DNA of 64,000 nucleotides, taken from assembly GCA_964016885.1 (NCBI GenBank), contig CAXHJY010001577.1, positions 1-64,000 of the forward strand, given 5' to 3'. The position numbers and the translations under genes are program-made. Positions 8,025 to 40,305 of this stretch are shown here, one piece after another. The notes under the pieces are model-generated. The model worked only from the letters and a program-made list of their open reading frames with translations, searched no databases and was not told where the DNA came from. This stretch comes from Eledone cirrhosa (taxonomy: Eukaryota). Each line of letters starts with the position of its first letter. Position 1 is the stretch's first letter.

Positions 8025-11000
8025 ATTAATATCTAGTAACATATATATACATACAGATGCATATCAATGCTAGCAAATATATAGGTTTTGTCTTAGTAAC
8101 TATGTGGTTCAATGCATGGGGTTGCAGAACATTAATATGAGAGACGTAAAATAAGAAAATTACAAAATTAACTTACTTACTAAAATATCACTTCCAACTA
8201 ATTAGATTCTGGAATGGAATAAATATATTTTCCGAAGAAAACATGCAGAATCATTCCGTCGTCAGGGAAGTCTATTCTCATCTAAGTATCCAGGCAAAGT
8301 GTGGACTCTGAAACTTATTAAAAAATAATTCAGTGGATAGAAAATAGCAAAGCGTGGACTGAATTCCTAGCCATAGAGAAAATCGCTGCCTCTGAGTCGG
8401 TGGCAAATTCAAAAAGAATCAATCACGTGACATCGAGGTCAATCAGTGGAAAGTGGTTTGCTAATAAGACAGCGGCATGCCTGCTACCATAGCAGCAGTC
8501 ATGGCCAATATTGCTCGACAAATAATTTGGAGATAATTATAAAGAATTAATATCTAGTAACATATATATACATACAGATGCATATCAATGCTAGCAAATA
8601 TATAGATTTTGTCTTAGTAACTTTGTGGTTCAACGCATGGGGTTGCAGAACAATAATATGAGAGACGTAAAATAAGAAAATTATAAAATTAACTTACTTA
8701 CTAAAATATCACTTCAACTAATTAGTTTCTGGAATGGAATAAATATATTTTCCGAAGAAAACAAAGAGAATCATTCCGTCGTCAGGGAAGACTATTCTCA
8801 TCTAAGTATCCAGGGAAAGCGTGGAATCTGGAAACTTATTAATAAAATAATGCAGTGGATAGAAAATAGCAAAGCGTGGACTGAATTCCTAGCCATAGAG
8901 AAAATCACTGCCTCTGCGTCGGTGGCAAATTCAAAAAGAATCAATCACGTGACATCGAGGTCAATCAGTGGAAAGTGGTTTGCTAATAAGACAGCGGCCT
9001 GCCTGCTACCATAGCAGCAGTCATGGCCAATATTGCTCGACAAATAATTTGGAGATAATTATAAAGAATTAATATCGAGTAACATATATATACATACAGA
9101 TGCATATCAATGCTAGCATATATATAGGTTTTGTCTTAGTAACTTTGTGGTTCAATGCATGGGGTTGCAGAACAATAATATGAGAGACGTAAAATAAGAA
9201 AATTATAAAATTAACTTACTTACTAAAATATCACTTCCAACTAATTAGTTTTTGGAATGGAATAAATATATTTCCGAAGAAAACATGCAGAATCATTCCG
9301 TCGTCAGGGAAGTCTATTCTCATCTAAGTATCCAGGCAAAGTGTGGACTCTGGAAACTTATTAAAAAATAATTCAGTGGATAGAAAATAGCAAAGCGTGG
9401 ACTGAATTCCTAGCCATAGAGAAAATCGCTGCCTCTGAGTCGGTGGCAAATTCAAAAAGAATCAATCACGTGACATCGAGGTCAATCAGTGGAAAGTGGT
9501 TTGCTAATAAGACAGCGGCCTGCCTGCTACCATAGCAGCAGTCATGGCCAATATTGCTCGACAAATAATTTGGAGATAATTATAAAGAATTAATATCTAG
9601 TAACATATATATACATACAGATGCATATCAATGCTAGCAAATATATAGATTTTGTCTTACTAACTTTGTGGTTCAACGCATGGGGTTGCAGAACAATAAT
9701 ATGAGAGACGTAAAATAAGAAAATTATAAAATTAACTTACTTACTAAAATATCACTTCCAACTAATTAGTTTCTGGAATGGAATAAATATATTTTCCGAA
9801 GAAAACAAAGAGAATCATTCCGTCGTCAGGGAAGACTATTCTCATCTAAGTATCCAGGGAAAGCGTGGAATCTGGAAACTTATTAATAAAATAATGCAGT
9901 GGATAGAAAATAGCAAAGCGTGGACTGAATTCCTAGCCATAGAGAAAATCACTGCCTCTGCGTCGGTGGCAAATTCAAAAAGAATCAATCACGTGACATC
10001 GAGGTCAATCAGTGGAAAGTGGTTTGCTAATAAGACAGCGGCCTGCCTGCTACCATAGCAGCAGTCATGGCCAATATTGCTCGACAAATAATTTGGAGAT
10101 AATTATAAAGAATTAATATCGAGTAACATATATATACATACAGATGCATATCAATGCTAGCATATATATAGGTTTTGTCTTAGTAACTTTGTGGTTCAAT
10201 GCATGGGGTTGCAGAACAATAATATGAGAGACGTAAAATAAGAAAATTATAAAATTAACTTACTTACTAAAATATCACTTCCAACTAATTAGTTTTTGGA
10301 ATGGAATAAATATATTTTCCAAAGAAAACATGGAGAATCATTCCGTCGTCAGGGAAGTCTATTCTCATCTAAGTATCCAGGCAAAGCGTGGACTCTGGAA
10401 ACTTATAGCAAACCACAAAGTTACTAAGACAAAACCTATATATTTGCTAGCATTGATATGCATCTGTATGTATATATATGTTACTAGATATTAATTCTTT
10501 ATAATTATCTCCAAATTATTTGTCGAGCAATATTGGCCATAACTCCTGCTATGGTAGCAGGCAGGCCGCTGTCTTATTAGCAAACCACTTTCCACTGATT
10601 GACCTCGATGTCACGTGATTGATTCTTTTTGAATTTGCCACCGACGACGAGGCAGTGATTTCTTCTATGGCTAGGAATTCAGTCCACGCTTTGCTATTTT
10701 CTATCCACTGAATTATTTTTTAATATGTTTCCAGAGTCCACGCTTTGCCTGCATACTTAGATGAGAATAGTCTTCCCTGACGACGGAATGATTCTCCATG
10801 CTCTCTTCGGAAAATATATTTATTCCATTCCAGAAACTAATTAGTTGGAAGTGATAATTTAGTAAGTAAGTTAATTTTGTAATTTTCTTATTTTACGTCT
10901 CTCATATTATTGTTCTGCAACCCCATGCATTGAACCACAAAGTTACTAAGACAGAACCTATATATTTGCTAGCATTGATATGCATCTGTATGTATATATA

Positions 11001-26927: not shown

Positions 26928-27156
<229 letters not shown>

Positions 27157-27304
27157 TATATGAAAAGTGTAAGTTTCTACACAAAACGAAGGTTATAGAG
27201 AAAATTGAGGTTGGTAATGGCACATGGAATATATAAGAGACAGAATACTTTTTTGTGAAAAAACATAATTTTATAAGGTAAGAAAATAATAAAGGGTATA
27301 AAAA

Positions 27305-27346
27305 ATGACCGGTTTCGATGGGTCTGCAAAAGCCATCTTTTCAAAT
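27305..27346 (-). ncRNA. Minimal HHR (U3-A8 variant) in the putative Neptune 3' pLTR
   Basis: Minus strand: TTGAAAA-gatgg...ccatc-GAAAC-CG-GTC; stem I weak (2 bp plus mismatches). Confidence 0.55.
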
Positions 27347-27699
27347 GTTGATTAATATTAAGAAAAATTAATAATACGAAGAGTTAAAATTTGAGACTTG
27401 AAAATTCAAGTATAAAATTCATTGTGGGATTTCATAGCAGTTTTCATCTAGGTAGCAACAACAGGTTGACTGCTGTGTCCCTTTCAGGTAGTGAATGAGA
27501 AGTTATTTGGGGTGTGGGTTATTTTATAAAGGTCAGATTTAGCAATCGCCAGCTGCTGGTCAGTGAGGGGGTGGAAGCAATATACACACACATATATCTT
27601 CCTGTGATGGGTAGGAGAGTGGAGCGTGATAGAAAAGGATTTAGTGCACTTACACCTATATATACACACATACCTTCATCCACACATACATACATATAC

Positions 27700-27742
<43 letters not shown>

Positions 27743-27811
27743 CACACATACATACACACACACATACATATACATACACACATACACACACACACACATA
27801 TATATACACAT

Positions 27812-27864
<53 letters not shown>

Positions 27865-27903
27865 TATATATACATACACATACATCCAGATACACACATA
27901 CAT

Positions 27904-27969
<66 letters not shown>

Positions 27970-28577
27970 CCACACATACATACACACACACATATATATA
28001 TACATACACACATACAAACATACACACACACACACACACACATATATATACACACATACACACACATATATATACACACACACACACACACACGCATATA
28101 TATATATATATACACATACGCATACATCCAGATACCCACATACATACACACACACACACACACACACGCACACACAATACATACATCCACATGCACACAC
28201 ATACTCACACACACACACACACACATACATACACCCACACACAGAGAAATGGCCTTCAAATATATATATATATATATACATACAGACACATATATTTTTT
28301 CCATAATATAAGAAGTTGGGGCAGTGAAATTAAAATACAAGTCATTCTGATCACATTGAGTTCTTCATGTAGATTGGGCCCCGCAACCGACAGTGGTGAA
28401 TTCTGTGTGCGCATATATATATAGATATATGTGTGTGCACGTGCAGGGTTTAACATGGATGTATTGGTCACACAAAGGCATGGTCTGTCAATGAATAAAC
28501 CTGATTCTACAGAATTGGTCTCTGGTCTTTAATAGTAGTGATTCCGTGCGTATGTGTGTTTATATTTTATGACAATT

Positions 28578-30860
28578 CTATTGGGGTGATAACCCGTTTA
28601 GTTTTGGTTTAAATTTGTTAAGGAATAGATTTTCTTTGTTTATTCTTTGTTGTTGTGTGAACGAATCTGAGCACTTGTAGAAGGGGAAGATTTTAAAGTT
28701 GGGTAGTGTCATTCCTGCGCAGTTCGCAATATGGCTGCTCAAGGGGATTTTTCTTGTGTTAGCGTCCCGGATTTGTTGGCGGTGGATGGTCATTCTTTTG
28801 CGTAATGAGGTGCCCGTCTGTCCTATGTAGTTGTGTTTGCACCCACCGCAAGTTATTGCGTAAATCAAGTTCTCCGAGTTGCAGGTGAAATTGTTTTTTA
28901 CTGTAAATGTTTGGCCATCTTTGAATGTAAATGTTTGTCCTTCAGTGAGGTAGAGGCACGTTCCACAGTTTGTTCTACCACATTTGGTAACTGTAGGGTT
29001 GAGGATTGGTTTGGGTATATTTGGTCCAGTGAGAATGCGTTTAAGTGATTTGGGTTGTCTTTTACTTTTAAGGATCTTGTGTGTTTCAAGAATAGACTTA
29101 ATTTTTACATCTTTAAGTAGGATGGGGAGGTTTTTGTGTAGGTGATCAAACATTTCGGTATTTCTGGGGTTGAAAGTGGATACATATGGCAGGGTGTTGA
29201 GTGTGGTTTTCTGTTTTGGATTGTTAAGTTGATGGGGATTTAGGTGTTTTGCCCTGTCTATTCCATTGTTGATTATTTCAAGTGGAAAGGCTCTTAAGAT
29301 AAGGGTGTCTTTTAGTTCCTTTAGTCTTTGCTCCCGTTTAGGTGGATCTGATACTATGGTACATATACGTTTGGCCAAATTGTAAGGAATGTTAAGTTTT
29401 GTATGTTTTGGGTGACTTGATGTGAAAAAGAGGTATTGCTTGGAATCTGTGGGTTTATAGAATATATCTGTATCTAATTTCCCGTCTATTACAGAGATGA
29501 GAATATCCAAGAAGGCTAATTCCTTAGGATTGGATTCCATTGTGAATTGTATGTTATTATCTATGTTGTTTATCATGTTTTTAAACGTAGTAAGTGAGTT
29601 CATGTCTTCTTGCCATAGGATAAAGCAGTCGTCTAGATATCTTTTCCAATTGGCTTTGAGGTGTGTGTGGAAAGAGTCTCCAAATAAGAGAAGGGACTGA
29701 CTGTATATTTGTTGTTCATGGAATCCCATGACTAGGTTGGCATATGTGGGTGCTACTTTCGTGCCCATTGCCGTACCTGATACTTGTCTGTATGTTGAAC
29801 CATTGAATGTGAAGTAGTTATTTTGTAGGATAAAGCGGAGTCCGTCAGTGATAAAATCTGTGTTGATGCGTGTCGGTATTTCTGATGGGTGTGTGTTAAG
29901 CCAGTATTGGACTGCTGTTATTCCATAGTTGTGAGGTATGTTTGTGTAGAGGTTTATTACGTCAAAGGAGACAAGAATTGTATTTGCACTTACTGTTTTA
30001 GGGAGGTGTTTCAGCATGTCAAGGTCATCTCGTATGTAGCTCTGTATATGTTGTAGAAAGGGTTTCAGTAGGATGTCCAGAAAGTTGCTAAGTCTGTGGG
30101 TTTCACATGTAGGGCCTGCTATAATTGGCCTGAGTTTTAGGTCTTCTGGTGGTGTTAGTTCAATGTAATTGTTGGTTGAGGTGTCACATGCATCGTTTAT
30201 GGGTTTACATTTGTGAAGTTTCGGTAAGCCATAAAAAGAGCTTGTATTGCATTTGAAGTGGCTTATATAGTTAAACTCTTTTGTGGTTAAGCTGTTGCGG
30301 TATTTATTCAGTAAGGTCAAAAGGTTCCCCATTGTTTTGGTGTGTTTGTAGTTTTCTGTTTTTTCATAGTATGTGTTGTTTTCTAAAATGTTAAGTGCGA
30401 GGGTCCTATAGTAGTCCGTATTCATAATCACAACAGTACTGCCTTTATCGACTTCTTTGATAGTTATCTCAGGGTTGTTTCTAAGTGTGAATAATTCTTC
30501 CCATTCGTGTGTAGATAGGTTTGATTTCGTGTGTTTATTTGTAATTTTTTCATAGGGAAAGTTGGTGATGTGTTCGCAGTACGTGTCCAGTGCTTTATTT
30601 CTTCCCTTTTGTGGGCAGAAATTGCTTTTATTTCTAACCAGTGATTCGTCTTCAGTGTTGGTGTCGTTGTGGAAGAATTCCGTTAGTCGCAGCTTTCGGC
30701 AGTATTCCATGATGTCATCCTTCATTTCGGGGAAGTTTGGTTTACGTGGTGTAGGTGTAAATTTCAGGCCCTTACTTAAAATGTTGATTTGTGTGTTGGT
30801 TAGAGGTGTCTTTGAGAGGTTGATTATTTTTGGTTTCTCCTGAGGGGGGGGGGGGGCCAT
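28578..30860 (-). CDS. PLE reverse transcriptase + GIY-YIG endonuclease (Neptune-type), 760 aa uninterrupted
   Basis: [69 protein letters not shown], Cys motif [38 protein letters not shown]. Confidence 0.95.
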
Positions 30861-31955
30861 CGAGTATCCTGGTATTTCAGGCTTTTCCCTAAAAAAGGAA
30901 TGTAGTTTTGTGTGTGATTATATTTTGTTGGTCTGTTGCGTGTGGGTCTGTAGCTTGTTGTTTCATGAGGGTGAATGTGATGGTGGGGGTGGTATGTGTT
31001 GTGGTTGTTGATGAGCAAGGGTTCTGTTGTTGGTTCATGTGGTCTGGGTGCGTTATTTCTGTGGTACAGAGTGTTGAGGCTGGGGGGTTGTCTTTTGTTG
31101 GATTGAGGGTGATGTCTGGTGTGGTTGTGGGTAAGTTCTGTTGTGATTTCAAGTGGCCTGGGTGGATTTCTTCTGAGGAATGTGGTGTGTGTGTTGTGAG
31201 TTGGATCTATGTTATTTCGTCGTTGGTTTATGTAGGGGGCATTTCTACGGAAACCTGTGTTGTGGTGGTTGGGTGTGTTTCTTTTGGTGTAGTTGGCCGT
31301 ATTTGGTTTGTGTTGGTGGGGGATGTGCCTGTGGTTAGTGTGTGTTGGGTTTGGTGGTGTAAATGTGTCTGTTGTAGTTCTTGTTATGTTCAAATGCTTT
31401 ATAAAGGGGTTACCTGTTTGGTGCGTCCTTTTAAAGTCTTCTTCATATTTGAGGAACCAGTTTTCGGATTTTTCCCACCGTTTAAGGGAAATAGTTTCTG
31501 CATTCTCGCAGTCCTGTTTCCACGATTTGATTAAATTTTGTAGGGTTGTTCCCTCGGCCTTTTTAGTGCATTCTTCCTCCATATTTTTATCAGTATCCTT
31601 ATACACTTGCTCGTTTGAGGTGGCCCTTAATTTTAGGAGTTCTATTTCCATGTTTATACTGTTGAGTGACATTTGTTCACGGAGTTTTCTTTCTGGTTCA
31701 GGTTCGTTTGTAATATGCTTTATTTGGAATTTACGTGGTAAAACTATCGGTGTTGAGTTAATCCATTTTTGGTAAATTCCAGCTTTGTTGAGGTTTTTTA
31801 TCATATTCCAGAAAGTGAATTTTCTGGTTTTTAGATGTTTTTTCCAGAGGTGTCCCATTTGGTTTTTGATATGGAGCAATGTCGTTTGTTCTGTGTTGGT
31901 ATTCATAAGTTTTTCGATGGAGTTGCATACGTTTTGAACGTTTAAATAAATTTGG
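30824..31955 (-). CDS. Upstream ORF1 of the PLE (5'-truncated; helical/charged region plus His/Thr/Asn/Pro-rich tail)
   Basis: Non-repetitive ~375-codon part of ORF 30824-32749; overlaps the RT ORF, which lies in the -1 frame. Confidence 0.7.
30890..30896 (-). promoter_or_regulatory. Candidate -1 ribosomal frameshift slippery site U_UUU_UUA
   Basis: CCT TTT TTA GGG is in ORF1 phase; a -1 slip gives [21 protein letters not shown], in frame with the RT ORF. Confidence 0.65.
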
Positions 31956-31959
31956 TTGT

Positions 31960-33900
<1,941 letters not shown>

Positions 33901-34111
33901 ATATTTCCTCTCCCAATCAGCATAATCAACCACACAAAAAACCAATTAAACCACGCTATAGGATTAAAAGACACCTATGAAGAAATAATAGATAAATAAA
34001 CGACAGCTATCTATTCGCGATCAACAACTATAGAATATTTACCCAGTATTTCTAATAGCACGTGGAAATCAATTAAATATATCGTCAACCATACACATAT
34101 ATATATATATA

Positions 34112-36722
34112 TATGAATATAGACATAGAATATTCGAAAATATTCTGTATGTTTATAATAAACATTTTGAAGACCTAATCGCTATAGAATAGAATACGTC
34201 ACGTATTACAATTAGATTCTCGATAAAAGCAAGGGAAGTAATCTACGCGTTTCATTCTCGTTAGAAATCATCAGGACTACATATCCAGTGCTTTTATCGA
34301 GAATGACACAGCTAGAGACTTATAGAATACTTAGCTGTGTACAGGAACTGGTTTGAAAGAGCGGTTGCCGGTCCGGCAGAAATTAGAAATTGGAATAAAT
34401 GCTCTGAAATAGCGATATATATGTGAATATAGACATAGAATATTCGAAAATATTCTGTATGTTTATAATAAACATTTTGAAGACCTAATCGCTATAGAAT
34501 AGAATACGTCACGTATTACAATTAGATTCTCGATAAAAGCAAGGGAAGTAATCTACGCGTTTCATTCTCGTTAGAAATCATCAGGACTACATATCCAGTG
34601 CTTTTATCGAGAATGACACAGCTAGAGACTTATAGAATACTTAGCTGTGTACAGGAACTGGTTTGAAAGAGCGGTTGCCGGTCCGGCAGAAATTAGAAAT
34701 TGGAATAAATGCTCTGAAATAGCGATATATATGTGAATATAGACATAGAATATTCGAAAATATTCTGTATGTTTATAATAAACATTTTGAAGACCTAATC
34801 GCTATAGAATAGAATACGTCACGTATTACAATTAGATTCTCGATAAAAGCAAGGGAAGTAATCTACGCGTTTCATTCTCGTTAGAAATCATCAGGACTAC
34901 ATATCCAGTGCTTTTATCGAGAATGACACAGCTAGAGACTTATAGAATACTTAGCTGTGTACATGAACTGGTTTGAAAGAGCGGTTGCCGGTCCGGCAGA
35001 AATTAGAAATTGGAATAAATGCTCTGAAATAGCGATATATATGTGAATATAGACATAGAATATTCGAAAATATTCTGTATGTTTATAATAAACATTTTGA
35101 AGACCTAATCGCTATAGAATAGAATACGTCACGTATTACAATTAGATTCTCGATAAAAGCAAGGGAAGTAATCTACGCGTTTCATTCTCGTTAGAAATCA
35201 TCAGGACTACATATCCAGTGCTTTTATCGAGAATGACACAGCTAGAGACTTATAGAATACTTAGCTGTGTACAGGAACTGGTTTGAAAGAGCGGTTGCCG
35301 GTCCGGCAGAAATTAGAAATTGGAATAAATGCTCTGAAATAGCGATATATATGTGAATATAGACATAGAATATTCGAAAATATTCTGTATGTTTATAATA
35401 AACATTTTGAAGACCTAATCGCTATAGAATAGAATACGTCACGTATTACAATTAGATTCTCGATAAAAGCAAGGGAAGTAATCTACGCGTTTCATTCTCG
35501 TTAGAAATCATCAGGACTACATATCCAGTGCTTTTATCGAGAATGACACAGCTAGAGACTTATAGAATACTTAGCTGTGTACAGGAACTGGTTTGAAAGA
35601 GCGGTTGCCGGTCCGGCAGAAATTAGAAATTGGAATAAATGCTCTGAAATAGCGATATATATGTGAATACGTGACGTATTCTATTCTATAGCGATTAGGT
35701 CTTCAAAATGTTTATTATAAACATACAGAATATTTTCGAATATTCTATGTCTATATTCACATATATATCGCTATTTCAGAGCATTTATTCCAATTTCTAA
35801 TTTCTGCCGGACCGGCAACCGCTCTTTCAAACCAGTTCCTGTACACAGCTAAGTATTCTATAAGTCTCTAGCTGTGTCATTCTCGATAAAAGCACTGGAT
35901 ATGTAGTCCTGATGATTTCTAACGAGAATGAAACGCGTAGATTACTTCCCTTGCTTTTATCGAGAATCTAATTGTAATACGTGACGTATTCTATTCTATA
36001 GCGATTAGGTCTTCAAAATGTTTATTATAAACATACAGAATATTTTCGAATATTCTATGTCTATATTCACATATATATCGCTATTTCAGAGCATTTATTC
36101 CAATTTCTAATTTCTGCCGGACCGGCAACCGCTCTTTCAAACCAGTTCCTGTACACAGCTAAGTATTCTATAAGTCTCTAGCTGTGTCATTCTCGATAAA
36201 AGCACTGGATATGTAGTCCTGATGATTTCTAACGAGAATGAAACGCGTAGATTACTTCCCTTGCTTTTATCGAGAATCTAATTGTAATACGTGACGTATT
36301 CTATTCTATAGCGATTAGGTCTTCAAAATGTTTATTATAAACATACAGAATATTTTCGAATATTCTATGTCTATATTCACATATATATCGCTATTTCAGA
36401 GCATTTATTCCAATTTCTAATTTCTGCCGGACCGGCAACCGCTCTTTCAAACCAGTTCCTGTACACAGCTAAGTATTCTATAAGTCTCTAGCTGTGTCAT
36501 TCTCGATAAAAGCACTGGATATGTAGTCCTGATGATTTCTAACGAGAATGAAACGCGTAGATTACTTCCCTTGCTTTTATCGAGAATCTAATTGTAATAC
36601 GTGACGTATTCTATTCTATAGCGATTAGGTCTTCAAAATGTTTATTATAAACATACAGAATATTTTCGAATATTCTATGTCTATATTCACATATATATCG
36701 CTATTTCAGAGCATTTATTCCA
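34112..36722. repeat. 310-bp near-perfect HHR tandem array, ~5 units then ~3.4 inverted units (junction ~35669)
   Basis: Exact 310-bp period; one substitution noticed (34963); TA tracts at both ends. Confidence 0.95.
35903..35945 (+). ncRNA. Minimal type I HHR of the 310-bp unit (8 copies: 34238, 34548, 34858, 35168, 35478 on minus; 35903, 36213, 36523 on plus)
   Basis: gtagtc-CTGATGA-t-ttct(aacg)agaa-t-GAAAC-GC-GTA-gattac; palindromic stem III ACGCGT; GUA triplet. Confidence 0.85.
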
Positions 36723-36772
36723 ATATATATATATATATTTATACTTACACATACATACGAACTACCGACCAA

Positions 36773-37805: not shown

Positions 37806-40305
37806 TCATCCCTTGAGGAGTGTAAGCAAAAATCCATTCCTGCTCCCTGCGTGGGAACAGGCAACATAAAGTTGGCCATGGGAGAAGCATGGCTCCCCCA
37901 AATGGATGCCCGCCACCGACAATGTTTGCCCTTGTGATTTGTTAATGGACATGGCAAAACATGGTCTCACCGGGAATTGGGATCGCCGGAAATCGAACTG
38001 GATATCTGACGCCGAGGGGAAAAAGTTCATACTTGGAATGAAAACATTCTCCCCTCCCGCGTACCCCGTTACAACGGTGGCCTCAATCAAGTGGGGCGTC
38101 AGTGACTTGACGACCATGCGAGTACCGTTGCACTGCTTTGGTGGACGCAAGTTCCTTATTAGAATAATGGGACAGCCAACCCTAAGCTTAAGAATGTGAG
38201 GTGGGAGCCCTGGGGGCTCAAGGGAATTTAATAACTTAACCGGATAATTAACGATATCGTCGAGGTCTGACGTCCGGTAGATACATTTGAAGATGTGTTC
38301 TTTACCGGGAAACTTCTCAATCAACTGCTCCTTAATAAAATTAACCATGGTATTTTTCGGAGCAAGGATGTCTCTTTGGCTGAGCCAATCGAGGTTTTTA
38401 AATTTAGATGAGACATTAGGAAAAAACTGCTTCCCAAAGGTCAGAAGGGCTGCTCACAATGTTGCACAAGGAGTCGATTGCTATGCATCCGCAGGGACCT
38501 TGCCCTCACCAAGTGCTAAAATATTCTGAGCAAATGCTGCAGACATGTTGTGACCATGCAAATGAGCACGCATATTTGTGCTCAGGTACAAACTCTTCAC
38601 CTAGAGCCACAACATGCACGGCTTAAGGCAGGCATGCACTTCATCCGCTCTTGTCCCTTTGGGTAAGACCGGCAGCGTTTGCCGAAAATCCCCTGATAGC
38701 AGAAGGGTTACGCCACCCATAGGAGCCGTAGAATCCCTAATGTCTTTCAGGGTCCTGTCCAAAGCCTCAAGGGCACCCTTGTGTGCCATTGTGCACTCAT
38801 CCCAAACAATGAGACAACATTTTTTGAGAACCAGAGCTTCGTGTGAACTCTTGCTGATATTGCATGTTGGTGTCTCAGTTTTTACTAAATCCAAGAGGTG
38901 TTTAAAGGTTGAATGTGATGTCCTGCCTCCCGGCAACAAAGTAGCAGCGATCCCGTACGATGCAACGGTCAACGCAATTTTTTTCTCCTGTCGAATCTTA
39001 GTGAGAATCCATTTCGTTACAAAAGTTTTTCCGGTACCCCCAGATTTTGAAATCTGATTTTGAACCGCGTCAATGATAGTTAAATAGGCCAACCTTTGGT
39101 CCGACAGAAGTTTCGGCTCATTTTCCTCTAAGTATTGGGGAAGAGATTCGATGTCATATGCTGTTTCCCGCAACAAATCCGGGGCCAACGTGTTAGCTTC
39201 CTCTCTGACGGTTGACGGCAAGCCCTACGTCGCCAACTCACTCCCACCCATGTCGAGGAGAGCGTCCTCGATATCAATGAGTGCCCTGTTGTAGATAATG
39301 TCGCTGTAACCAACTTCCACTGAAGTATACTGCAGATGAGCCAGGCGCAGGAAGTCCTCAGACATGAAGTCTCTGTACTTGACCCATAAAGATTTGGGAT
39401 CACCCAATTCACATTTTTGAAGCAAAATGGCAAAGAGTTCCCGAAGACCTTTAGGTGATTTCAACAGAGCACCCTCTGCTAAAGTGGAATCCCATTGCGA
39501 ACCAAAAGACCACGCTTAAAGCAGGCTTCCCGGTACGTATCACATATTTCTCCATCAACAATTTTGAGGTCCTGAAAACTTTGTGGGCCTACAACTTCAT
39601 GCAGAAGAAGGCGGAGATGAAAGCAGTCATGCTGACTTGGGGGCACAGTGTAAACCCTTCCAAGACAGCTGTCAAATTTTACACCAGGATGTCTTTCAGC
39701 AGCCTTACCTGACTTTCTTCGCACCCGAATGTTTTTCGACCATATAAAGTAGGATGGAACCTGGGAGTACACAATTGTTTGCGCAAATGTATCGAACTGG
39801 CAAAGTTTGAAGAAACCCGTCAGAGTGGTCTCTTTCGCATCCGCGGCCAACTTGACGGCGGTTTGGTCCGTAAAGTAAACCCTTTGCCCATTTTCCAAAT
39901 GTACCGCAAGCTGTACGATGGCGGGGTGACGTTGTTGTAGGGGTAAACCAAATAGTCGCCAAAAAGCTTCATTGCTACTGATGTACCTCCCCGCCATGTA
40001 ATCTGTGATCTCGTCCCTGCTATTTTCAGTTTGAAATGAGAACATTGCGGCATCAGAGCCCTTATTTACATATTTGCATATTTATTTTATCGACTTGACC
40101 GAGATGCAAAACTCAACGTTGATGTGGGCGTTGAACATCTTCAAGAGAAGCGGGCAATAAGGGACCACCCATCTATTGTCGACTTGACCTCCCCTTACTG
40201 TTGTGGTGAAGCCACCGTTCTCGGGCCGTCTCCGCCTGTACAGGGGGTACCCGTCCCCACCAGTCTGAGTCTGGTCAACAAATTTTTTTGGGTATCCCTT
40301 ACCGC
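37806..40305 (-). pseudogene. Helitron RepHel (Rep C-terminal region + Pif1 helicase), frameshifted
   Basis: GRYISSNEAFWRLF, LAVHLENGQ, GGTGKT, AATLLPGGRTSHSTF, VWDECTM, GDFRQTLPV, NGTR, FAMSINKSQGQTL, FSHGQLYVA spread over several broken ORFs. Confidence 0.92.

Follow-up and report, generated by a model that had tools for sequence, protein, structure and literature searches.

The window analysed here is a 64,000-nucleotide stretch of contig CAXHJY010001577.1 from the 3.0 Gb genome of Eledone cirrhosa, and it contains a retrotransposon on the minus strand, the strand to which all junction coordinates refer. The element, strongly supported by its sequence as a Neptune-type Penelope-like element (PLE), extends from 31959 to about 27155 and is bounded by (TA)n tracts (Table 1). 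It carries two open reading frames (ORFs), namely ORF1 and a frame encoding a reverse transcriptase (RT) followed by a GIY-YIG endonuclease (EN), which overlaps the end of ORF1 by 94 nt at -1. The window copy is truncated at 31959, with the start and about the first 47 codons of ORF1 missing, and is probably an inert insertion. At the junction of the two frames, a programmed -1 frameshift on the heptamer U UUU UUA very probably joins ORF1 to RT-EN.

Table 1. Features of the Neptune-type element and its flanks (window coordinates).
Feature	Position	Strand	Remarks
ORF1, 5'-truncated	30824..31959	-	421 aa in full copy L028; long helices predicted, then a disordered N/H/T/P/R-rich tail
RT and GIY-YIG endonuclease frame	28578..30917	-	-1 relative to ORF1; 779 codons from stop to stop
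Slippery heptamer U_UUU_UUA in ORF1 phase (Pro-Phe-Leu)	30890..30896	-	retained in 41/43 distinct family copies and present in four other families
CCUG/CAGG hairpin	30868..30881	-	4 bp, -4.9 kcal/mol; not significant; other families lack it
AUG in the RT frame	30858..30860	-	overlaps the ORF1 Trp codon at +11 past UUA; G at +4
C13 run	30844..30856	-	seven C in the modal copy, with the offset unchanged; long runs are unstable
ORF1 stop (TAA)	30824..30826	-	21 codons past UUA here, 19 in the modal copy; made from Ile-Ile codons of the RT frame
RT catalytic YLDD	29628..29639	-	motif reading
C-X4-C-X2-C linker, Neptune/Nematis type	28956..28982	-	CGRTNCGTC; definition from PMC8557442
GIY-YIG core, LIY...C ... 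YIG	28821..28868	-	motif reading
3' untranslated region and pseudo-LTR with internal microsatellite	27155..28577	-
(TA)n-rich microsatellite at the truncated 5' end	31960..32787	.	a second one flanks the 3' end below 27155

The initial annotation of this DNA had proposed a retrovirus-style frameshift, and re-reading of 30896-30890 confirmed the heptamer in ORF1 phase (CCT TTT TTA GGG AAA), with GGGA directly 3' of it. Upstream of the heptamer, the -1 frame is already open for 7 codons, where about 8 had first been counted, and it runs from 30917 to 28578 without a stop; as had been stated, the RT-EN protein is 760 aa long when counted from the AUG. The AUG (30860-30858) and the C13 run (30856-30844) also lie where they had been placed. 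By a hand calculation from the ORF1 composition (T 0.159, A 0.434), T6A would fall in phase by chance within the 31 overlap codons with a P of about 2e-4, and T6A occurs a single time in the 2.7-3.1 kb of ORF1 plus ORF2 in each of the three families examined. The 8-mer TTTTTTAG is by itself ordinary in the window, with 2 occurrences found and 3.0 expected.

The same junction recurs in other families. Searching the genome with outside ORF1 homologues retrieved four more, named B, C, D, and E, whose ORF1 proteins are 43, 40, 24, and 29% identical, respectively, to that of the window's family A. Their junctions read CAT TTT TTA GAC (B and C), CAT TTT TTA ACG (D), and CAT TTT TTA GGA (E), with RT at -1 and the -1 frame opening 5-20 codons before the heptamer. 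Counting the distinct copies that include the exact RT anchor plus 240 nt of preceding sequence, we find T6A in phase and RT at -1 in 32 of 39 (B), 25 of 29 (C), 13 of 15 (D), and 11 of 13 (E). The metagenome contig L111, with an ORF1 27% identical to that of family A, has the same layout, the heptamer in phase, and RT at -1. Aligning other copies, as the initial annotation had suggested, and other families showed both the heptamer phase and the overlap to be conserved; a special meaning of the HIV-like GGGA is not supported, as other families have GAC, ACG, GGA, and GGC. Even in lineages as little as 24% identical, the heptamer keeps its ORF1 phase, whereas no start codon or splice AG is shared and no RNA stimulator is detectable.

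A search with the RT N-terminus found at least two metagenome loci among the matches listed (L111 and L112), plus L113; no match was found in viral contigs. L112 and L113 do not carry this ORF1, which is therefore not universal among related PLEs. L113 consists of one PLE frame of 1006 aa; profile comparison shows no relation between its N-terminus and this ORF1, and this one test lends no support to ORF1 being the split-off N-terminus of single-ORF PLEs. L113, P0210, P0239, P0243, P0251, P0292, and P0305 are PLE proteins in bacterial assemblies, several of them of bivalve gill symbionts, and are likely carry-over of host DNA.

At the protein level, a profile search gave 748 ORF1 homologues (clusters at 50% identity), of which the best 150 are all at most 496 aa long. 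Of 151 ORF1 proteins in the set, 61 were shorter than 290 aa and were dropped as likely fragments, which left 90 long ones for analysis. Phe-Leu occurs within the last 60 residues in 71 of the 90 long homologues, compared with 8 and 13 in the two preceding 60-residue segments, and its Phe is the same in all 60 rows of an alignment with 20-48% identity. The residue before Phe-Leu is never Lys, Glu, Gln, Met, or Trp (0 of 71, against 19% expected and 9-21 at neighbouring positions), with a P of 3e-7 if the rows are independent, a value that overstates the case because the rows are related. Codons for these five residues cannot end in U, and hence their absence fits the first U of the heptamer. 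In five proteins other residues stand at the place of Phe-Leu, namely Tyr-Phe-Arg in P0040 and P0051 and Phe-Phe in P0006, P0047, and P0074, possibly marking variant slippery sites. Among 582 RT-EN homologues, the best 120 range from 622 to 803 aa in length and include no fusion, although the search extended to 1330 aa; 69 of these 120 have no called start (ATG, GTG, and TTG being indistinguishable) upstream of the conserved motif I-N-L-S. Longer fused forms of ORF1 were not found among 2859 candidates, which is a weak test. One pair of ORF1 and RT-EN proteins (P0046/P0215), whose contigs are equal in length and presumably one and the same, is compatible with a -1 overlap over 7 codons. Pearl oyster is the sole host name found among the ORF1 relatives, and the lineage may be rich in molluscs.

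Five families, one outside contig, and 71 of 90 long ORF1 homologues thus speak for the programmed -1 frameshift and the gag-pol-like, two-product layout that had been proposed for a Neptune-type PLE. Most ribosomes would stop at the end of ORF1 and release the ORF1 protein alone, and a minority would slip back one base at the heptamer to produce an ORF1-RT-endonuclease fusion of about 1,170 aa. That ribosomes do slip at this heptamer is what we infer from the sequences, and the ratio of ORF1 to fusion would presumably matter as it does for gag-pol. An AlphaFold model from 119 sequences has five long helices in ORF1 residues 9-224, with pLDDT above 95 for about residues 71-230 and the rest disordered; ORF1 gave no Pfam match, none at E 0.001 in the PDB or viral libraries, and no usable Atlas match. 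The predicted helical bundle with its disordered basic tail could act as an abundant ribonucleoprotein-forming or chaperone protein, which may be oligomeric and RNA-binding like other retroelement ORF1 proteins.

One alternative would have RT-EN translated separately from the AUG at 30860 through reinitiation or internal initiation, with the heptamer incidental, and we consider it very unlikely. The AUG is followed by G at +4, a GUG occupies the same place in family B, the Trp found at +11 in six tails implies N-UG-G in the RT frame, and the nearest RT-EN homologues are called as starting at a comparable position. However, the AUG is private to the window family and its near kin, and therefore fails as the general explanation that the initial annotation had left room for. 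No AUG precedes I-N-L-S, the RT start motif, in B, C, D, E, or L111: the first in-frame AUG past the heptamer comes after 155, 59, 42, and 165 codons in B, C, D, and E, respectively, always beyond the motif, and none exists in the 96 codons of L111. The linkers of C, D, and L111 do not contain any NUG. Furthermore, the 69 of 120 homologues mentioned above have no called start to use, and a separate start leaves the fixed Phe-Leu unexplained. In the window family, initiation at this AUG could perhaps add a minor product to that of frameshifting, although we regard this as rather unlikely; Asp-x-x-Trp is conserved in five related ORF1s, which leaves room for a real secondary start.

Two other explanations turn on the C run. 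A junction query returned 707 candidates, 40 of which were scored, at at least 99% identity, and a pattern across the C run had 158 exact matches in the genome, of which 100 listed copies were counted. Sixty of these are at -1, 19 are fused, and 21 are at +1; 49 have one and the same length, AUGG followed by seven C, with the -1 offset, and a second subtype with long C runs is spread evenly over the three phases (11, 14, and 16). As to the C-run length, which the initial annotation had suggested checking, the contigs of greatest depth in run X1 (possibly the source sample) are identical to this modal form. No heptamer variant is listed in any of four runs, one of which carries another organism label. 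On a star-like tree of 43 distinct family copies, in which long runs and deliberately added fused copies are over-represented, the fused copies are scattered and form no clade, and the shortest branches belong to the modal -1 copies. The copies L234-L238 (G000 C4, C7, C3, C11) carry a C-run change that fuses ORF1 with RT-EN in frames of 998-1181 aa, and they are dispersed on the tree. As the modal copy has the -1 offset with C7, the C13 run is evidently no artefact, and a single extra C, once offered as a way of fusing the two ORFs, does not explain the offset in general; fused copies, which had been named as grounds for rejecting the frameshift, do exist, yet most of the listed copies are at -1.

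That RNA polymerase or RT slips on the T6 or the C run and adds a base, fusing the frames in RNA, is highly improbable: the long C runs do vary among copies over three phases, but the C run is limited to the window family, and such slippage would not fix T6A to the codon phase of ORF1. A run of six T is also short for polymerase slippage. Still less credible is that the element has one ORF, disrupted in the C run by homopolymer slippage or misassembly, for which the 19 fused copies and the existence of open frames of 998-1181 aa can be cited; against it stand the modal C7 copy at -1 and the X1 contigs identical to it, the four families that have no C run and are also at -1, the scatter of the fused copies, and the absence of fusions among the best 150 ORF1 and 120 RT-EN homologues. 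Equally hard to credit is TTTTTTAG as a 3' splice acceptor in a spliced RNA that skips ORF1: it is found in families A, B, C, and E and in L111, 50 of 71 residues past Phe-Leu have codons starting with G, and PLEs are known to retain introns, Penelope and Chlamys-3 being described with introns in the 5'-UTR (PMC8557442, in part), but family D, which reads TTTTTTAAC without the following G, and the 21 of 71 residues whose codons cannot start with G remove this reading, and an acceptor located in skipped sequence would neither be held to the ORF1 phase nor keep C out of the T run. The joints listed from runs of DNA or of an unrecorded kind include no GT..AG joint at that position.

The programmed frameshift would apparently proceed without a marked RNA structure, as judged from local folds downstream of the heptamer. 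The pairing of CCUG (30881-30878) with CAGG (30871-30868) noted previously is present in the minimum-energy fold after an 8-nt spacer, but the role of stimulator suggested for this hairpin is not borne out: the window junction folds no better than shuffles (z 0.63, with 146 of 200 shuffles equally good), and other families do not share the hairpin. Across seven junctions, z ranges from -0.9 to +1.7 and no family folds better than its shuffles; family C has almost no structure in the first 70 nt, and the best pseudoknot from a simple scan of the seven junctions is equalled by at least 32 of 200 shuffles. Of the usual marks of -1 sites, a conserved in-phase heptamer inside a -1 overlap is present and a 3' stem-loop or pseudoknot, usually 5-9 nt downstream, is not seen.

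The distance from the heptamer to the ORF1 stop shows a regularity of its own. We counted the codons that separate UUA from the stop of ORF1 in 76 rows, made up of 71 proteins, the families A-D, and L111. This spacing is exactly 10 in 24 rows, 11, 12, and 13 in 3, 2, and 3 rows, and then tails off to 40, with none below 10 when counted from the first Phe-Leu; it is 19-21 codons in the window family and 31 in family E. Stops occur further along the ORF1 frame at 0.06-0.09 per codon, at which rate about half of the lineages would be expected to stop sooner and about 3% at 10. Another 43 cluster members were compared, and 39 show the same ten-codon end; some lie on megabase contigs. The 10-residue tails are 10% identical, compared with 7% in shuffles, which points to conservation of tail length rather than of the peptide. 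Longer spacings lean to 19-22, 29-33, and 39-44 (20 of 49 against 28% expected, P 0.036, with kinship uncorrected and the ranges chosen after viewing the data). A contig-end artefact was ruled out as the source of the ten-codon spacing by those 39 of 43 members and by the real stops in family C and L111. A by-product of the RT codons for I-I-N-L-S was also rejected, as in C and L111 the +11 stop precedes the motif and only 2 of 24 tails end in Lys. An AUGA stop-start was rejected as the cause too: it is absent in C and L111, and the inferred pair P0046/P0215 has its start at +5.

In mouse liver disomes, the A site lies at 15 nt in the trailing ribosome and at about 45 or 48 nt in the leading one, in two states one codon apart (PMC7397865, in part), which means that 10 or 11 codons separate stacked ribosomes. 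With the ORF1 stop in the leading A site, UUA would then be in the P or A site of the trailing ribosome, which would hold UUU-UUA in its P and A sites in the 33-nt state, or UUA in its P site in the 30-nt state. Ribosome traffic would thus be favoured over RNA structure as the trigger, the stop being the 11th codon past UUA in 24 of 76 lineages. In the window family, with its 19-21 codons, the trigger could be a queue of two ribosomes, the weak hairpin, or the heptamer by itself. Here Trp, whose codon differs from a stop by one base, stands at +11, the position of the ORF1 stop in the 24 related lineages, and the AUG at 30860 that overlaps it may be a by-product of losing the +11 stop. We tentatively suggest a widespread, unannotated two-gene Neptune lineage in which an ORF1 stop one ribosome-length past U UUU UUA makes the terminating ribosome the roadblock, with no RNA structure. 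If so, enzyme output would rise with ribosome load and slow termination.

The same spacing can be read in another way, to which we give a nearly even chance overall and, once the frameshift is granted, a chance of about one half: the stop may be kept at least one ribosome-length off so that the terminating ribosome does not block the site, selection for a short overlap would pile stops up at this floor, and slippage would be unstimulated or aided by a protein factor. In SARS-CoV-2 and Ty1, where the stop is nearer than one footprint, frameshifting depends on clearing the terminating ribosome, according to the available parts of PMC10855120 and PMC8168617, and 52 of the 76 rows are spaced by more than 10, so that 10 is not obligatory. 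However, the sharp spike at 10 and the lean of the longer spacings described above are less easily accounted for by clearance.

Several observations weigh against the programmed frameshift or its proposed trigger. A called start lies upstream of I-N-L-S in 51 of the 120 RT-EN homologues, 19 of the 90 long ORF1 homologues have no Phe-Leu in the last 60 residues (some with Phe-Phe or Phe-Arg, some seemingly cut short), the AUG of the window family is real, and GUG is present in the linkers of B, at the place of the window AUG, and E. Beyond this genome, the heptamer is seen at the DNA level only in L111, a separate contig, and in run X6 contigs, all other evidence being read from protein, and the decayed copy L225 stops one codon past it. 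No stimulatory structure was detected in the junction folds, so the efficiency may be low. As for the spacing, 20 of the 24 ten-codon rows belong to one clade, with long terminal branches, and 4 stand elsewhere; by single linkage at 40%, 5 of 19 clusters include a ten-codon row. P0150 ends in His-Phe-Leu-stop in all four of its members, a spacing of 0, or of 23 from an earlier Phe-Leu. Disomes at stop codons were not seen in mouse liver, with a technical caveat (PMC7397865, in part).

If the programmed frameshift is accepted, the view of how this large PLE lineage of invertebrates arranges its coding sequence would change, with a conserved ORF1 family of 748 clusters and an RT-endonuclease that has no start of its own. 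Attempts to rebuild Neptune retrotransposition with only the RT-EN ORF would lack both the probable native fusion and its partner. For collision-stimulated -1 frameshifting at termination, the spacing of ten codons would be a natural and directly testable case.

The assignment of the element to the Neptune type draws on several features. RVT_1 is above the cut-off in the RT frame of the window; GIY-YIG is above it in three homologues and was judged in the window protein itself by the LIY...YIG motif. The RT domain is followed by the C-terminal endonuclease as in EN+ PLEs, and the linker fits the Neptune pattern C-X2-5-C-X2-C, which is shared with Nematis; by eye, its spacing is like that of the Neptune rows in supplementary Fig. 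S2 of PMC8557442. A pseudo-LTR is present, window 27594-27155 matching positions 44-483 of L028 at 99%, and in full copies it lies upstream of ORF1. Both flanks of the window copy and several other copies fit the (TA)n target preference of the Neptune clade. No hammerhead ribozyme was found by Rfam or as a core pattern in the pseudo-LTR, although minimal variants could escape detection; the Rfam matches of the window element are microsatellite artefacts only, and RT-EN has no match by sequence among solved structures. The pseudo-LTR also contains two splice-donor-like sites (window 27648-27673, minus strand), and a 5'-UTR intron as in Penelope would be possible.

Elsewhere in the window, at 34105-36729, near-identical units of 310 bp form an array whose orientation reverses at about 35669, giving a palindrome with arms of more than 1 kb, either a genuine fold-back or an assembly artefact. 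Three open stretches of 200-215 aa lie on the minus strand at 37809-40081 and, judging from their motifs, resemble pieces of a decayed Helitron Rep/PIF1-type helicase. The segments 488-1308 and 9729-10549 are inverted repeats of 821 nt, 100% complementary and 8.4 kb apart.

EN+ PLEs are described as single-ORF elements in PMC8557442 and PMC6515669 (both in part), a norm that the two ORFs at -1 in five families do not follow and to which published exceptions exist. Compared with the Neptune clade as given in the former, the element shares the RT, linker, C-terminal GIY-YIG, pseudo-LTR, (TA)n flanks, and 5' truncation, but differs in its separate, conserved ORF1 overlapping RT-EN at -1 and in a pseudo-LTR in which no hammerhead core was found. 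In the killifish Neptune repeat.CL27 (PMC12602865, compared by its description, in part), there are also two ORFs, with an ORF1 of no known similarity, but these are reported not to overlap, and no frameshift is mentioned in the description. We found no published report of a Neptune frameshift, and nothing on it in the accessible parts of PMC3846280, PMC6431247, PMC3849965, PMC8915115, PMC5408684, PMC6515669, and the preprint 10.64898/2026.07.22.740005; an earlier record is quite possible, since Repbase and key PLE literature lay outside the search.

According to the legend to Fig. 1 of PMC8557442, which does not name the clade, a frameshift with a pseudoknot can set off the ORF1 of a PLE. In our element, the endonuclease is present and no pseudoknot was found. 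The element of that legend is presumably Athena, which we take to be endonuclease-deficient. Two ORFs are described for Athena and the fungal Coprina (PMC13159263, in part). These PLEs resemble ours in a coiled-coil ORF1 with disordered regions upstream of RT and in the frameshift junction (PMC8557442 and PMC13159263, in part), which is a likeness of layout. HIV-1 gag-pol (PMC5009743, in the accessible text of which the word Penelope was not found) uses the same U_UUU_UUA, with the structural protein first and the enzyme at -1. In contrast, the junction described here has no notable downstream stem-loop, its GGGA is not conserved, its ORF1 has no capsid or other fold match, and the element is non-viral.

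For a terminating ribosome as a -1 stimulator, we found no report, the nearest being PMC8168617, PMC10855120, and PMC7544508 (each in part). In SARS-CoV-2 and Ty1, as in our element, the distance from the slippery site to the 0-frame stop acts through trailing ribosomes, as described in the first two of these. Their stop lies within one footprint, and quick clearance helps the RNA structure, whereas here the stop lies at least one footprint away and no structure is seen, which suggests that the terminating ribosome itself may be the roadblock.

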